A stretch of 40,622 nt of DNA from a virus (IMGVR_UViG_2671180275_000009:1-40622), one strand, 5' to 3'; numbered from the stretch's first letter, positions 32,859 through 40,622 are shown. The notes: generated by a model not told the origin, from the letters alone. A program made the numbers and translations.

Positions 32859-33406
32859 CGCTTGCAGCTCATCAGCGCGCATTGTTGCAGCTCCTACCCG
32901 ATGGCCTGGCATGGGATAAACGTCCTGAATCCGTGTTGTCAGCCTTATGTCTTGGGCTAAGTCACGCCACCGAGCGTGTATCCTGGACGGCTAATCAGTT
33001 ACTTTCGGAGCGCTTTCCGGAAACATCCCGGATGTTACTGGAGGACTGGGAGCGTTATCTGGGGTTGCCTGAATGTGATATGGCAGGAGCAACGTTGCAG
33101 GAGCGCCAGCGATACGCGGCGAATAAATACCGTATGAAGCCGTCACTGAACCGCGAGTTTTATATCCGGTTTGCGGCTGAATTTGGCTATGTGATTGATA
33201 TTCAGCCATCACCGGAATCGCAGTGGATCAGTATTGTGACCGTAAAAAGCGAGGTTGGGTATCGTCACATGCATGTGCTCGATCACATTCTGACGCCTCT
33301 GCGGATATATGAAGGTGGTGCGCTGGAATGCATTTTAAACCGGTATAAACCGGCCTGGCAGACGTTTTTATACATTTACGAAAAGTCGCATGAGGAGACG
33401 GAATAA
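32849..33406 (+). CDS. Tail protein (Mu gp48-like)
   Basis: 185-aa ORF immediately upstream of the tail fibre gene. Confidence 0.5.
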   Translation: MALTLAAHQRALLQLLPDGLAWDKRPESVLSALCLGLSHATERVSWTANQLLSERFPETSRMLLEDWERYLGLPECDMAGATLQERQRYAANKYRMKPSLNREFYIRFAAEFGYVIDIQPSPESQWISIVTVKSEVGYRHMHVLDHILTPLRIYEGGALECILNRYKPAWQTFLYIYEKSHEETE

Positions 33407-34374
33407 TGTATTTCGTGGATAACAATACCGGTACGACAGAGATGCCAGCGCTGGCTCCATCGCAGGGTACTGAAGTTAAGTGGTTTACGGAAGGCGACGG
33501 TAATAAAGGTATCAGCCATATCGGGCAGGACTGGCTTAATATCATTCAGGCAGAATTGCTTGCGATTTTGACTGAAGGAAAAATTCAACCAGATAAAATG
33601 AAGCTGAATCAGCTTACACTGGCAATCAAGGCCATTATTACGGCCAATGCTTTTTTACGTAAAAACAACCTGAAAGAAATCGAGGATGCGGGAGCTGGTG
33701 CTCAGGCGAATGCCAGAAAAGCTCTTGGGCTGGGGACTCTGGCGACAAAAGATAAGCTTTCACCAACAGATGTTGGTGCGCTTGAAAAAAGCAAAAATTT
33801 GTCTGACGTACCCGATAAAGTTGCGGCCCGTACCAACCTTGGGGTTTACAGTAAAGAAGAAGGTGATCGGCGTTATCTGAAAAGCGGCGCAGATATTGGT
33901 TCATATAGTCGCGAACAAAGTGATGGGTCATATCTTAAGGTTGCGTCAAATGGTTCTGACATTGCAAACAGAAGTGCCTTTATCGATAACCTCGGTTTAC
34001 GGGAAACGGTAAACAGGGCGGCGAATGCCCTGCCATCGAACGGAACGGCCGTTGCCGCGAACAGGCTGGCAAATGCCCACACAATTAATGGTGTTCCCTT
34101 TGACGGAACGCAGGATATCAACATTACCTCCGGTATGACCGAAGCTGCTGCTGATAACAAATACGTTCGCAACGTTCAGCTTGGTGCCCAGAGTTACCAT
34201 TCACCCGGAGGTAATGAAATGTCCTGGAGTTATGGCGCGCCTTCCGGTTGTATGCTTTCAGGTATTAACGTGCAGGAGACCGGGAGAAATTCAGCCGATA
34301 ATATCGGAGGCGTTTATTACCGTCCGGTGCAGATATATATCGGTAATGCCTGGCGCACAGTTTCATCCGTCTGA
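33406..34374 (+). CDS. Tail fibre protein S: constant N-terminal part (to ~33990) fused to the currently expressed variable C-terminus
   Basis: 322-aa ORF; C-terminal third is homologous to the inverted alternative exon at 35422-35051 (AANRLAN..INGVPFDGT.DINITSGM). Confidence 0.75.
   Translation: MYFVDNNTGTTEMPALAPSQGTEVKWFTEGDGNKGISHIGQDWLNIIQAELLAILTEGKIQPDKMKLNQLTLAIKAIITANAFLRKNNLKEIEDAGAGAQANARKALGLGTLATKDKLSPTDVGALEKSKNLSDVPDKVAARTNLGVYSKEEGDRRYLKSGADIGSYSREQSDGSYLKVASNGSDIANRSAFIDNLGLRETVNRAANALPSNGTAVAANRLANAHTINGVPFDGTQDINITSGMTEAAADNKYVRNVQLGAQSYHSPGGNEMSWSYGAPSGCMLSGINVQETGRNSADNIGGVYYRPVQIYIGNAWRTVSSV
33980..34005 (+). other. gix/hix-like 26-bp recombination site, left
   Basis: TTATCGATAACC TC GGTTTACGGGAA resembles the Gin/Hin site consensus as I remember it (TTATC..AAACC nn GGTTT..GATAA); lies inside S codons D-N-L-G-L-R-E-T. 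Confidence 0.6.
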
Positions 34375-34383
34375 TTAAAGGAA

Positions 34384-34406
34384 AAGGGTGCGATAAGCAC
34401 CCTTTA
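34384..34406. terminator. Hairpin between convergent S and tail fibre assembly genes (candidate bidirectional terminator)
   Basis: AAAGGGTGC / GCACCCTTT 9-bp stem with GATAA loop. Confidence 0.45.
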
Positions 34407-34408
34407 CG

Positions 34409-34951
34409 TTATTCAGGCTTCTCCGGCCATTTAATGTCGTCAAATTCAGCTTTGTTTTTAATCGCTGGTAGTTCCATTTTTTTCACCTGACTGATGTATG
34501 CCATCCATCGGGTAAGTGCGGCTCTGTCTTCATCACTGATGGTGCCCAGCTGTAATTCTGTTCTCCAGTCATTAATTTTTTCATATGCCTGATTAAGATA
34601 TGACTGGCGCATTGCTTCCAGTTTTCTTGCGTAGTTAACCGGAATACGGGAGATCACGCCATTATCAAACTTCCAGTTACCCGAAATATCAGCACCTTCA
34701 GGGAGTTCGTCGACTTCAACCACAGAGAACCCCGCAGGATACAGCGCCGAAGCGTCCTGTGATATTGAGCAGATAATGCCGCTGTCAGGTGTTATACAAA
34801 GTTTATATTTTTTTGTGAATAATGGCAGGGACTCGTAGAAATCCTTACCATCTTCACTCTGAAAATACTGTACATCATTACCATAGAGGGTGTTTTCCGG
34901 GTAATATCGTTTAACATTAATCAGTTGCATAAACATCACCATGTGAATCAA
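34409..34951 (-). CDS. Tail fibre assembly protein (Tfa / Mu U family)
   Basis: 180-aa ORF ending ...FDDIKWPEKPE, typical C-terminus of phage tail fibre assembly chaperones. Confidence 0.75.
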   Translation of the reverse strand: MIHMVMFMQLINVKRYYPENTLYGNDVQYFQSEDGKDFYESLPLFTKKYKLCITPDSGIICSISQDASALYPAGFSVVEVDELPEGADISGNWKFDNGVISRIPVNYARKLEAMRQSYLNQAYEKINDWRTELQLGTISDEDRAALTRWMAYISQVKKMELPAIKNKAEFDDIKWPEKPE

Positions 34952-35050
34952 TGATAAAAACAGGAATAATACTATCGCTATATACGGACAGGGGTTGTCT
35001 GAGATAACGCATATATCAGGCGCTGCCTGCCGTACGCCATGAGCCGTTAA

Positions 35051-35422
35051 TTAAATACTTGCAGCGGATACCCAATTCCCATTAATACAATATTGTATCT
35101 GTCTGTAATAAACACGGTCATCACCACCACGCATTTCCCAGTCTCCGTCAGTCTTAAAACCGGTAATCACATTTCCTGATGACAGGGAGTAATTATATTC
35201 CAGTACGCCGCTTAATGCCTGCGCTCCCAGTCTTACCCCTGTAACATAACGCTGATTGGCCGTTGATTCCGGCATTCCTGACGTAATGTTTATATCCCGC
35301 GTCCCGTCGAAAGGAACACCATTAATATTTCTTGGGGTGGCGAGTCTGTTTGCTGCCACGGCGGTTCCCCCCGATGGCAGGGCATCAGCGGCCTTATTTA
35401 CCGTTTCCCGTAAACCGAGGTT
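35051..35422 (-). CDS. Alternative tail fibre C-terminal exon with no start of its own
   Basis: Reading frame opens immediately after a TGA inside the right gix-like site and encodes NLGLRETVNKAADALPSGGTAVAANRLATPRNINGVPFDGTRDINITSGM..., homologous to S residues from the crossover point. Confidence 0.65.
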   Translation of the reverse strand, partial: NLGLRETVNKAADALPSGGTAVAANRLATPRNINGVPFDGTRDINITSGMPESTANQRYVTGVRLGAQALSGVLEYNYSLSSGNVITGFKTDGDWEMRGGDDRVYYRQIQYCINGNWVSAASI

Positions 35423-35430
35423 TCAGGGAT
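35405..35430 (+). other. gix/hix-like 26-bp recombination site, right (inverted relative to left)
   Basis: TTCCCGTAAACC GA GGTTTCAGGGAT; its reverse complement shares the half-site GGTTTACGGGAA and centre TC with the left site. Confidence 0.6.
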
Positions 35431-35484
35431 GCCGTATATCTGCTTTAAAAAGCATTTCCACCTCTTTTTAAGGAAGGTAAATAC

Positions 35485-36045
35485 ATGCTGATTGGCTATA
35501 TACGCGTATCAACAAATGACCAGAACACAGGTTTACAAAGAAATGCGCTGGAATGTGCAGGATGTGAGCAGATTTTTGAAGACAAAATGAGTGGTAAAAC
35601 GACGCAGCGGCCGGGACTGAAGCGGGCACTGAAGAAACTAAAACCCGGCGACACACTGATGGTCTGGAAACTGGACAGGCTGGGGCGCAGTATGCGCCAC
35701 CTTGTTGCGCTGACAGATGAATTACAGCAACAGGGGATAAATTTTCGTAGTCTTACTGACAACATTGATACGTCAACCCCCATGGGGCGCTTCTTTTTTC
35801 ACATAATGGGTGCGCTGGCAGAAATGGAGCGTGAATTGATTGTCGAACGGACACGGGCTGGTCTTGCTGCTGCCCGTGAAAGGGGACGAACCGGCGGCAG
35901 ACCCCGTCGTCTCACGCAGGAACAATACGAGCAGGTCGGGCGTTTACTGGCCGGGGGTGTCAGCCGAAGACAGGTGGCACTTATTTTTGATATCGGCCTT
36001 TCAACCCTTTATCGTTATTATCCTGCGAGCGTTTCGGAAAAATAA
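35485..36045 (+). CDS. gin: Gin/Hin/Cin-family serine DNA invertase
   Basis: 186-aa ORF starting MLIGYIRVSTNDQNTGLQRNAL (catalytic Ser motif) with C-terminal HTH; adjacent to invertible segment. Confidence 0.85.
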   Translation: MLIGYIRVSTNDQNTGLQRNALECAGCEQIFEDKMSGKTTQRPGLKRALKKLKPGDTLMVWKLDRLGRSMRHLVALTDELQQQGINFRSLTDNIDTSTPMGRFFFHIMGALAEMERELIVERTRAGLAAARERGRTGGRPRRLTQEQYEQVGRLLAGGVSRRQVALIFDIGLSTLYRYYPASVSEK

Positions 36046-36144
36046 GACGCTCTCTTTGTTGGGCCTTTACTGAATTAACGCAAAATGGCGTTTATCGGTC
36101 TGTGGATATGATAATTCTGTTTATTCAGGAACAGGCTGATTATT

Positions 36145-38184
36145 ATGACGTCCAAATGGGTTCAACTATCATCAATGCCCGGAAACTTTACTGTTAAAGT
36201 TTCCGGTGGTACAGCGGCATTTCTTGAGGCTCCCTTTCCTCCGGCCGAAACAAAAGGAGGAATGACATTTGCTGACTGTCTCATCAGTTTTAATACACGG
36301 GATTGCCTGTGGGTAAGGCCAGTATCCGGTGATCCGAGCGTGGAAATTACCGGTGCGGGTATTGGTGCTGTCATTCCGTTAAGTGCTGATGTTGCCGGTA
36401 CTGCTGAACCGTCAGACTGGGATAATGCTGAAACACATACCCGTCCGTCAGGAAATGAAACTGCTTCCAGCTCCCCTTCCTGGTATTACGTGGTGGTTCT
36501 TGCTGGTCAGTCAAACGGGATGGCCTACGGTGAAGGTCTGCCGCTGCCGGAGACATATGACCGCCCCGAACCGCGTATTATGCAGTTAGCCCGTCGCAGT
36601 ACAGTCACGCCGGGAGGTAAAGCCTGTCAGTATAACGACATCATTCTGGCCGACCACTGTCTGCATGATGTGCAGGATATGAGTGGAAAAAATCACCCGA
36701 AAGCGGATGTGGCTAAAGGGCAATATGGCACCGTGGGTCAGGGGCTTCACATTGCCAAAAAACTGCTGCCGTTTATTCCGGCAGATGCGGGGATTCTGCT
36801 GGTTCCCTGCTGCCGTGGTGGTTCTGCATTCACGGCGGGTGCTGACGGCACGTACAGTGACAGCACGGGTGCTTCAGAGGACTCAGCCCGCTGGGGTGTG
36901 GATAAGCCGCTGTATAAGGACTTAATCAGCCGGACAAAAGCGGCACTGGCGAAGAACCCGAAAAACCGCCTGCTTGCTGTGGTGTGGATGCAGGGCGAGT
37001 TTGATATTGATGCGAAGCCGACGGAGCATTCCGCGCTGTTTCTGGCGATGGTGGAAAAATTCCGCGCAGACCTGGCTGAACAGGCGGAACAGTGTACCGG
37101 TGGCAGTGCTGCTGGCGTTCCGTGGATTTGTGGCGATACCACGTATTTCTGGAAACAGAAAAACGAACAGGCATACCAGGCAATCTATGACGGCTACAAA
37201 AATAAAACAGATAAAAACATTCATTTCGTCCCATTAATGACAGATGAAAATGGCGCGAATGTACCCACCAACAATCCGACAGAAGACCCGGATATTGAAT
37301 CCATTGGTTATTACGGCTCAACGTGGCGTAACAGTGCCGCCACCTGGACATCTGCGGGCCGGGCCAGCCATTTCAGTTCATGGGCACGTCGTGGGATTAT
37401 TTCCGACCGTCTGGCCACGGCTGTTCTGACTCATGCAGGGCGAACCACAGTAAAAGCCGATGTTCCATCTTCTGAAACTGAAGCACCAGTGCCGTCACCT
37501 TCAGAAACTGAAGCAGTAACCACAACACTGCTGTCTTACCGTGTCAGTGAGTCAGAAGGAAATCTGAAAGCCCAGGGCTGGGAGCCGGCTGGCGGTAAAG
37601 CTGAAATTATCAGTGATGCAGGAGGCACAGGTGGTAAGGCAATGAAACTGACCAAGGAAACAGGTAAATCATCCTGGTATCTGGATCATGATGCCGGTAC
37701 TGGTGCTGAACTGCTGAAAAATGGTGGTTTAATCAGTTGTCGTTTTAAAGTACCTGGCGACCTGGTGGCAAACCAGTATGTCATGGCGCTTTACTGGCCG
37801 GTTTCCTCTCTGCCGCAGGGTGTCACCCTGACAGGGGATGCAGGGAATAATCTGCTGGCATCGTTCTACATCCAGACAGACGCAAAAGACCTGAATGTGA
37901 TGCACCACAATGCAAAAGTGGCAACAAATAACCAGAAACTGGGAACCTTTGGTGTATTTGATAATGAATGGCATACGCTGGCCTTCCGTTTTGCAGGAAA
38001 TAACAGCCTTCAGGTTATTCCGGTTATTGATGGTCAGGATGGTGCCGCGTTTACCCTGACGCAGTCACCAGTAGGAACTTTCCCGGTGGACAAACTCCGC
38101 GTAACGGATATCACCAAAAATGCAACTTACCCGGTGCTGATTGACAGCATTGTGGTGGAAGTGAAAAAAGCGGTAACAGAATAA
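36145..38184 (+). CDS. Putative carbohydrate O-acetylesterase (SGNH/SASA family, NanS-like) with additional N- and C-terminal domains
   Basis: 679-aa ORF with YYVVVLAGQSNGMAYGEG (GQSN active-site motif of sialate O-acetylesterase-type hydrolases); GATAAT -10-like element upstream. Confidence 0.55.
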   Translation: MTSKWVQLSSMPGNFTVKVSGGTAAFLEAPFPPAETKGGMTFADCLISFNTRDCLWVRPVSGDPSVEITGAGIGAVIPLSADVAGTAEPSDWDNAETHTRPSGNETASSSPSWYYVVVLAGQSNGMAYGEGLPLPETYDRPEPRIMQLARRSTVTPGGKACQYNDIILADHCLHDVQDMSGKNHPKADVAKGQYGTVGQGLHIAKKLLPFIPADAGILLVPCCRGGSAFTAGADGTYSDSTGASEDSARWGVDKPLYKDLISRTKAALAKNPKNRLLAVVWMQGEFDIDAKPTEHSALFLAMVEKFRADLAEQAEQCTGGSAAGVPWICGDTTYFWKQKNEQAYQAIYDGYKNKTDKNIHFVPLMTDENGANVPTNNPTEDPDIESIGYYGSTWRNSAATWTSAGRASHFSSWARRGIISDRLATAVLTHAGRTTVKADVPSSETEAPVPSPSETEAVTTTLLSYRVSESEGNLKAQGWEPAGGKAEIISDAGGTGGKAMKLTKETGKSSWYLDHDAGTGAELLKNGGLISCRFKVPGDLVANQYVMALYWPVSSLPQGVTLTGDAGNNLLASFYIQTDAKDLNVMHHNAKVATNNQKLGTFGVFDNEWHTLAFRFAGNNSLQVIPVIDGQDGAAFTLTQSPVGTFPVDKLRVTDITKNATYPVLIDSIVVEVKKAVTE

Positions 38185-39368: not shown

Positions 39369-39415
39369 GATTGCATGAGAAAGGCATCAACAACAAAGCA
39401 GGAGGTTATGCGGCC

Positions 39416-39601
39416 ATGTATCGAAACATACGGTGCCGACACTGCAATAAGCTACTGGCACGGGCCAGTTTCAGTTATCTGGAAGTAAAATGTCCGCGCT
39501 GCAAAACCCTCAATCAAATCACATCTCAGAGCGCCACAGAGCACCCCACATACACAAGGAAATCCTGCCGTGGGGAACAAGAAACATTACTTTCAGTCTG
39601 A
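39416..39601 (+). CDS. com: Com-like zinc-finger translational activator
   Basis: MYRNIRCRHCNKLLARASFSYLEVKCPRCK closely resembles my recollection of Mu Com (IRCKNCNKLL...IEIRCPRCK); GGAGG RBS; 3' end overlaps the next gene. Confidence 0.8.
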   Translation: MYRNIRCRHCNKLLARASFSYLEVKCPRCKTLNQITSQSATEHPTYTRKSCRGEQETLLSV

Positions 39602-40622
39602 TAAGTCACTAACCTATGGTTCAGTATGCAGTGGTATTGAAGCTGCGACAGTAGCCTGGAGCAATCTTGGCTGGAAAGCCAGATGGTTCAGTGAAATAGA
39701 GGACTTCCCGTCAACACTTCTTTCATATCGCTGGCCCCATATACCAAATCTTGGTGATATGGCTTTGCTTGCGCCTCGTATCAGGGATGGGCTTATTGAA
39801 GCACCAGATATTCTTGTAGGTGGAACTCCGTGTCAGGCATTCAGTATGTCAGGCAAACGAAAAGGCCTTTCAGATCCACGGGGGCAGTTAACACTGTCTT
39901 TTGTTGAACTGGCGAATCAGATAGATACCGTTCGGGCATCGCTCAATAAATCCCCCTCAATAATCGTATGGGAAAACGTCACAGGAGTTTTAAGTAGCCA
40001 TGACAATGCATTCGGTCATTTTCTTGGTGCGCTGGCCGGAGCAGGTTGCGCATTACAGCCAGCAAGGAAAAGATGGGCAAACGCTGGTGTTGTGTCTGGA
40101 CCATCGCGTATCGTCGCCTGGCGAGTACTTGATGCCCAATATTTCGGAGTCGCCCAGGCTCGCAGAAGAGTGTTTGTTGTGGCAAGTGCTGGAAAAAGGC
40201 TCGATCCCGGAAAGGTATTATTTGAGTTCCCGCCTGTGTCGCAGGGCGATAAAAACTATTACGGAAAGAAGAAAAAATCCGAATCCCTTCTTGATCAAGG
40301 CATTGAAGGAAAATTGCACCGATATTGCCTTGAAGCATTGCCAAAACGAACAGGCACAGTAATAGCTGGCTATAACGGAACAACTAACCAGGACATGACT
40401 ATGTCTGGTGGGCTCATAGTTGAAAGAGCGCCATATTCAAGGGTTCGTAGGTTGACGCCAACCGAATGCGAGAGGCTACAAGGTTTTCCCGATGGATATA
40501 CAGATATTCCATGGAAAAATTCATCTCCAGCTCATCGTTATAAGGCCATTGGAAATTCAATGCCTGTACCGGTCATGAAATGGATTGGTCGAAGAATACA
40601 GGAAGCGTTAAACGAAGTTTAA
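39570..40622 (+). CDS. C5-cytosine DNA methyltransferase (GTG start overlapping com)
   Basis: Motifs GGTPCQAFS (catalytic PCQ), IVWENV, QARRRVF and IGNSMPVPV in canonical order; stop codon is the last triplet of the window. Confidence 0.85.
   Translation: MGNKKHYFQSDKSLTYGSVCSGIEAATVAWSNLGWKARWFSEIEDFPSTLLSYRWPHIPNLGDMALLAPRIRDGLIEAPDILVGGTPCQAFSMSGKRKGLSDPRGQLTLSFVELANQIDTVRASLNKSPSIIVWENVTGVLSSHDNAFGHFLGALAGAGCALQPARKRWANAGVVSGPSRIVAWRVLDAQYFGVAQARRRVFVVASAGKRLDPGKVLFEFPPVSQGDKNYYGKKKKSESLLDQGIEGKLHRYCLEALPKRTGTVIAGYNGTTNQDMTMSGGLIVERAPYSRVRRLTPTECERLQGFPDGYTDIPWKNSSPAHRYKAIGNSMPVPVMKWIGRRIQEALNEV

Follow-up and report, generated by a model that had tools for sequence, protein, structure and literature searches.

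Layout of the inversion segment and its crossover sites

This report concerns a tail-fibre gene and its neighbourhood in the viral sequence IMGVR_UViG_2671180275_000009:1-40622, a stretch of 40,622 nucleotides that is called the window below and from whose first letter all positions are counted. The window is a nearly complete Mu-like prophage of Escherichia coli and is a member of the Sp18 family of Mu-like prophages. Among 5426 complete E. coli genomes, DETEC-S792 and SW070917 are 100% identical to the window over the studied region. It was found that the baseplate genes (homologues of Mu 44-48) are followed by the tail-fibre gene S, a convergent tail-fibre assembly gene (tfa), a start-less reading frame on the minus strand, an invertase gene, a gene for a DUF6645/SASA-esterase protein, com, and a DNA methyltransferase gene. 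The segment between the constant part of S and the invertase gene is very probably a working Gin-type tail-fibre inversion switch, the equivalent of the G segment in an Sp18-type Mu-like prophage. Its elements are as follows.

33406-33992, plus strand: Sc, constant N-terminal portion of S, covering about 195 codons of the open reading frame 33406-34374 up to the crossover core
33980-34005: left crossover site, gixL-like, with the central dinucleotide TC at 33992-33993
33993-34374, plus strand: Sv, or tip A, the variable C-terminal 127 amino acids expressed in the window orientation (from the translation, tip homology and substitution rates)
34378-34410: hairpin between the convergent Sv and tfa, with the arms AAGGAAAAGGGTGC and GCACCCTTTACGTT (from an inverted repeat search)
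34409-34930, minus strand: tfa, the U/U'-like tail-fibre assembly (chaperone) gene, 173 amino acids
34931-35050: spacer of 120 nucleotides between Sv' and tfa
35051-35417, minus strand: Sv', or tip B, a promoterless and start-less alternative C-terminal exon of 122 amino acids plus a stop codon (from in-silico inversion)
35405-35430: right crossover site, gixR-like, with the central dinucleotide GA at 35417-35418 and, in its inner half, the TGA that ends the frame ahead of Sv'
35485-36045, plus strand: Gin-family serine DNA invertase, 186 amino acids
35503-35574: enhancer-like (sis-like) region in the 5' end of the invertase gene, with the conserved end blocks GTATCAACAAATGAC and GCAGGATGTGAGC

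The sequences of the two sites are TTATCGATAACCTCGGTTTACGGGAA (left) and TTCCCGTAAACCGAGGTTTCAGGGAT (right). The Mu gix sequence TTCCTGTAAACCGAGGTTTTGGATAA, which was confirmed in Mu AF083977 exactly at the two annotated boundaries of the G segment, was used as the reference; the left site matches it at 23 of 26 positions and the right site at 20 of 26. Compared with each other as inverted repeats, the two sites agree at 20 of 26 positions. They are inverted with respect to each other with their centres 1425 base pairs (bp) apart, and the cores TC and GA on the plus strand are the same dinucleotide as an inverted repeat. A 19-nucleotide core pattern, searched with up to three mismatches, has exactly two matches in the window, while 0.00 matches were expected from 100 shuffles, and no third site with 19 or more of the 26 positions of Mu gix exists anywhere in the 40.6-kilobase window. 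Shufflons use a tyrosine recombinase and produce several permutations from more than two crossover sites. Since the window holds only two sites and its recombinase is of the serine type, a multiple-inversion device of the p15B Min or shufflon class was ruled out.

The left site encodes F-I-D-N-L-G-L-R-E in frame within S (322 amino acids), while the reverse complement of the right site reads TGA-AAC-CTC-GGT-TTA-CGG, or stop-N-L-G-L-R. Thus, the alternative exon opens straight after a stop codon without a start codon of its own. In-silico inversion at the central dinucleotide regenerated both sites and gave an in-frame S' of 317 amino acids whose residues 1-195 are common with S and whose tip is nearly identical to those of annotated full-length fibres in naturally inverted genomes. 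Inside the sites, the inverted homology goes on: positions 33988-34070 pair with 35340-35422, and 34084-34143 with 35267-35326, each at 83% complementarity. In total, about 150 bp at 83% identity correspond to about 48 codons at 83% amino-acid identity, beyond which the two tips drop to roughly 25% identity. These results agree closely with the original prediction, which was made from the sequence alone. It had placed two inverted 26-bp gix/hix-like sites around about 1.42 kilobases, the left one inside S codons, and the same peptide at the beginning of a start-less opposite-strand exon that opens after a stop codon. Both the coordinates and the translations are correct, the alignment to known invertase sites that it had proposed as a test succeeded with Mu gix, the predicted swap of about 127 for about 122 amino acids was reproduced in silico, and the homology said to extend about 45 codons past the crossover before diverging is of nearly that length.

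Two variations at the sites and next to them were observed. In many relatives (the loci L005, L006, L009, L010, and L011), the left site has a C-to-G change directly beside the crossover dinucleotide (AACGTCGG; N-V-G for N-L-G). In the Mu-like phage SfMu of Shigella, a mutation at a similar position beside the core was suspected of blocking inversion (PMC4406740). I considered AACGTCGG as a lock on inversion in L005 and L006, but this was ruled out by its presence in the opposite-orientation loci L009 and L011. In addition, the window and the O157 loci L004, L006, and L009 combine the proximal 45-codon block (34006-34143 and 35267-35404), which has the variants NRAAN…ANAHT and NKAAD…ATPRN, with the distal tip in different ways. 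This suggests occasional homologous exchange or gene conversion in the inner inverted-repeat block besides the site-specific inversion.

The fibre itself is a shortened Mu S with three matching stretches, namely residues 1-110 (Mu S in PDB 5YVQ, E value 8e-44), the crossover motif FI(D/Q)NLGL(R/Q)ETVNRA, which aligns with Mu S residues 153-191, and the last 70 or so residues. Its best PHROGs family is phrog_1833, a tail fiber protein. The shaft of about 240 amino acids found in the variable part of Mu S is missing, and the segment is therefore only 1425 bp in length, compared with 3058 bp in Mu and 4256 bp in P1. Tip A is closest to the tip of the short tail fibre 9CUY (E value 8e-16) and is a distant kin of the Mu S tip, while tip B, which the window state leaves silent, is closely homologous to the S tip of Mu G(+) that was crystallised with U (5YVQ; E value 5.5e-22). 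These matches fit the alternative receptor-binding tips proposed in the original prediction, and five tip types exist across ten relatives. Tip A is intact in every locus and has a ratio of nonsynonymous to synonymous substitution rates (dN/dS) of 0.04-0.15 between lineages, with dS up to about 2.9. By these rates, tip A is under strong purifying selection and encodes a selected function. The two tips would presumably give different host ranges.

The invertase has the Pfam domains Resolvase (1e-51) and HTH_7 (2e-14) and matches the Gin structures 3UJ3 and 4M6F over residues 1-182 (E value 2e-91), with Ser9 and the motif IGY(I/V)RVSTNDQ conserved. Its protein accession, WP_000904930.1, is that of the invertase of O157 Sp18-type prophages. 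The Q-x-x-R-L residues, conserved between this invertase and Gin, align with Q151, R154, and L155 of Hin, which are Fis-contact residues specific to DNA invertases (PMC3798978). The enhancer was located by comparison with the P1 record AF234172, where the Cin enhancer is annotated at nucleotides 19-90 of cin. Nucleotides 19-90 of the invertase gene align with it without gaps at 83% identity, while the next 300 nucleotides are 68% identical, and the two end blocks are kept in P1, Mu, and all relatives. About 95 bp lie between the middle of the first conserved block and that of the right site. The distance from the right-site centre to the invertase start codon is 67.5 bp, the same as in Mu, despite the diverged intervening sequence. 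By homology, the window has a cis enhancer in the 5' end of the invertase gene, and inversion is presumably dependent on Fis. A scan of the same 5' region with a consensus Fis motif did not help because the motif is too degenerate to inform.

Based on these features, the following mechanism may be proposed. The invertase would bind the two gix-like sites, assisted by host Fis on the enhancer in the first 90 nucleotides of the invertase gene. Both sites would be cut at the central 2 bp and the strands rotated, by which the 1425 bp would be inverted. Since the left site lies in frame inside S, each inversion would join the constant part of 195 amino acids to either tip A (127 amino acids, the window state) or tip B (122 amino acids), and a population of lysogens would release particles of two receptor specificities. 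The tfa gene would be co-transcribed with tip B after inversion and be antisense to the late operon in the window state.

Natural occurrence of both orientations

As four independent kinds of evidence show, the segment occurs naturally in both states, with the breakpoints inside the sites. Between the near-identical prophages of the O157:H7 strains F7508 and Z869, the flanks are collinear at 97-98%, while a 1436-bp block is inverted at 99.8%. The ends of the inversion map inside the 26-bp sites, and the invertase and Tfa proteins of the two strains are identical. The innermost base of the 26-bp site is polymorphic (A or T), and this difference moved with the segment, while the outer half-sites stayed. 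Thus, the exchange took place inside the 26-bp site and not in the longer inner homology. A second pair of strains, JNEC-KY203 and STEC2018-607, has the same inversion pattern.

The orientations were counted in the 5426 complete genomes with queries in which tfa and the invertase gene were joined in one or the other relative orientation. Of the genomes with the Sp18-type cassette, 179 have one orientation and 22 the other, the majority having tfa antisense to S; for the window-type cassette, the numbers are at least 25 and 17. The Sc of the window is rare (two of the 5426 genomes), and an in-silico inverted query found no inverted state with this same Sc among the complete genomes at a coverage of at least 80%. 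In public E. coli assemblies, the exact predicted S' of 317 amino acids was found on 24 contigs and the window's own S of 322 amino acids on 96. Assemblies also contain annotated stand-alone fragments that are identical to the window's Sv, which is expected since Sv is the silent copy in the other state. The original prediction had offered the sight of a single orientation only as evidence against a switch; both orientations exist in public genomes, and so does the exact hybrid S' predicted for this prophage.

The single tail-fibre assembly gene and alternative explanations

The product of tfa matches Pfam Caudo_TAP (3e-19), PHROGs phrog_136 (1e-54), and Mu U (5YVQ chain B; E value 2e-17), and is annotated as a tail fiber assembly protein in CP116067. 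It is the sole Caudo_TAP gene in the segment and is co-oriented with Sv' only; in the window state it is antisense to the late operon. No assembly gene follows Sv on its own strand. Between the stop codon of Sv and that of tfa lie 35 nucleotides, which form a hairpin, and there is no remnant of a second tfa. T-rich runs follow the hairpin on both strands, and from its sequence it is a probable bidirectional terminator, although a simple terminator scan of 33300-36200 did not call it. The arrangement of S-U and S'-U', in which each tip is followed by its own assembly gene, is absent from the window. All ten relatives also have one tfa; tips B, D, and E are always linked to it, and tips A and C never. 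A promoter scan of 33300-36200 gave 7 promoter-like sites, compared with 4.9 in shuffled sequence, and none of them is placed to drive tfa. When the upstream regions of tfa from 10 loci were aligned, no conserved promoter-like block common to the cassette types was found.

How does tip A fold? It could depend on the single Tfa made from an unrecognised promoter, on Tfa supplied in trans, or on no chaperone at all. That tip A is inherently chaperone-free was weakened as a candidate explanation by the tip-A-like tips of SfMu and of the P2-like phage 9W, each of which is directly followed by a tfa gene of the U type. Mu U and SfMu_51 are 87% identical in the N-terminal half and 96% identical in the C-terminal half, and yet they are partnered with different tips. 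The same U-type chaperone thus pairs with A-like and B-like tips elsewhere, and by analogy one Tfa could plausibly serve both tips of the window. It is possible, but rather doubtful, that inversion also toggles between a chaperone-linked fibre mode (tips B, D, and E) and a chaperone-unlinked one (tips A and C). To my knowledge, there is no prior analysis of this single-chaperone asymmetry, which is a modest variation.

The same asymmetry leads to an alternative in which the switch is effectively ON/OFF: the chaperone would be made only with tip B, and the tip-A state would give misfolded or absent fibres and non-infective particles. The position of the single tfa antisense to S in the window state, its being the only one in all ten relatives, the tfa genes directly behind the A-like tips of SfMu and 9W, and the failure of the scan and of the 10-locus alignment to find a promoter for tfa would all be accounted for. 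However, a tip that is misfolded or absent would hardly be kept intact in every locus at a dN/dS of 0.04-0.15 with dS up to about 2.9. In Mu and SfMu, chaperones of the U type serve A-like as well as B-like tips, and more genomes have the tfa-antisense state than the other. Because tip A is under purifying selection and its state is the commoner, the tfa-antisense state seems to be functional, and the ON/OFF alternative is improbable.

Two further explanations were considered. The inversions between genomes might result from RecA-dependent homologous recombination across the inverted repeats, which are about 150 bp in length at 83% identity and whose 45-codon block has been reassorted with the distal tip between lineages, a sign of occasional homologous exchange in the repeats. 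This is very unlikely, since the exchange between F7508 and Z869 lies within 17-20 bp of identity around the core and the whole block including the innermost site position was inverted; moreover, an intact and highly conserved invertase with its enhancer adjoins the segment. It is equally hard to credit that the switch is a fossil with dead sites or a dead enhancer, frozen in the tip-A state. The shared orientation of the two complete genomes with this exact prophage and the divergence of the outer half of the right site from Mu gix would be in line with it, but the exact S' hybrid, which carries the rare Sc of this prophage, is present on the 24 public contigs. Both sites are identical to those of relatives seen in both states, and so is the invertase protein to that of the O157 prophages seen in both states.

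Several of these observations nevertheless weigh against a working Gin-type switch. The match of the right site to Mu gix is lowered to 20 of 26 by its outer half, both DETEC-S792 and SW070917 are in the window orientation, and there is one chaperone gene only, for which no promoter was found in the scanned region, so that the tip-A state might be less fit. The orientation counts are skewed 4:1 to 8:1 toward the tfa-antisense state, unlike what fast and unbiased switching would give. The skew might be due to slow switching combined with clonal inheritance, or to an equilibrium that is biased.

Relation to known switches and neighbouring genes

The kind of device is already known. It is a textbook Gin/Cin/Pin-type switch, and its sole non-textbook feature is the single tfa. 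An invertible host-specificity region of Sp18 in E. coli O157:H7 Sakai was already mentioned in 2009 by Asadulghani et al. (PMC2669165). The original prediction overlooked this earlier description, and it also overlooked that there is one assembly gene only, by which the two states are not equivalent. Like the window, Sp18 has S, a segment of Sv, one tfa, and Sv', the identical invertase WP_000904930.1, and a DUF6645 protein. Both carry tip A, their right-hand sites have the same outer half and core, and both orientations exist among O157 genomes. On the other hand, the Sc of the window is different, the tfa-linked tip is D in Sp18 and B in the window, and the tfa genes are 78% identical in the N-terminal half and 49% in the C-terminal half. 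Sp18 has mom where the window has a C5 cytosine methyltransferase.

The G segment of Mu with Gin shares with the window the 26-bp gix sites, the crossover in the NLGL(Q/R)ETVN motif of S, the homologous invertase and its spacing from gixR, a tip homologous to tip B, and U as the homologue of tfa. It differs in that it has both U and U', and its variable parts are 320-336 amino acids in length compared with about 125 in the window, where the shaft portion is missing. The C segment of P1 with Cin and the P segment of e14 with PinE belong to the same class of Fis- and enhancer-dependent serine invertases, flip the C-termini of tail fibres, and have the enhancer in the 5' end of the invertase gene. 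The P1 segment, however, has U and U', and its invertase lies on the other side of the segment relative to Sc. The e14 segment is 1797 bp in length (PMC12529663). In SfMu, the S' tip is 57% identical to tip A and a Gin invertase adjoins the segment, but there are two tfa genes, one behind each tip. The authors of the SfMu study saw no host-range difference and suspected a site mutation beside the core (PMC4406740). In surveys of programmed inversion, tail-fibre and tail-fibre assembly genes are among the commonest targets and neighbours (PMC9881135).

Some observations were made on the genes beyond the invertase. A protein of 679 amino acids, encoded at 36145-38184 between the invertase gene and com, has a SASA-type carbohydrate esterase domain and DUF6645. 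It is kept in all Sp18-like relatives and is missing from Mu, and it could be a virion-associated or surface-modifying esterase. In the region 39371-40622, com (39416-39601) is followed by a C-5 cytosine DNA methyltransferase gene (PF00145; 39570-40622) in place of mom. The methyltransferase and the Sp18-type mom share their GTG start and their first codons (V-G-N-K/R-K), and diverge only about 15 nucleotides into the open reading frame. Thus, com is kept in full, together with the initiation region under Com control, and from this junction the methyltransferase seems to have come under the regulatory circuit of Mom. RNA folding of the com/methyltransferase junction could not be told apart from that of shuffled sequence. 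The methyltransferase version is present in 10 of the 5426 complete E. coli genomes, while 223 match the com part only and then run into mom. The same methyltransferase was found in Mu-like inserts of two Shiga toxin (Stx) phages.

The switch also leaves traces in genome annotations. On the identical genome, RefSeq calls a 'hypothetical protein' of 61 amino acids at 35286-35471 (plus strand), spanning the right crossover site, and a 'phage tail protein' of 102 amino acids with a GTG start at 35051-35359 (minus strand) for the silent exon. Both calls seem to be artefacts that the switch causes in annotation. Where a genome has the opposite orientation, Sv is the silent part and bears the label of an incomplete pseudogene.

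As a textbook G-segment device, the switch carries little mechanistic weight of its own. Its practical meaning is that annotation pipelines go wrong at the silent exon and call a spurious open reading frame across the right site, and that orientation differences between near-clonal enterohaemorrhagic E. coli (EHEC) genomes are programmed and not assembly errors. The single-chaperone layout is a natural test of whether one Tfa serves two fibre tips. If tips A and C fold without co-expressed Tfa, or if Tfa is expressed whatever the orientation and serves two dissimilar tips, the segment would be a minimal, asymmetric G segment, and this asymmetry would bear on the true specificity of tail-fibre assembly proteins.

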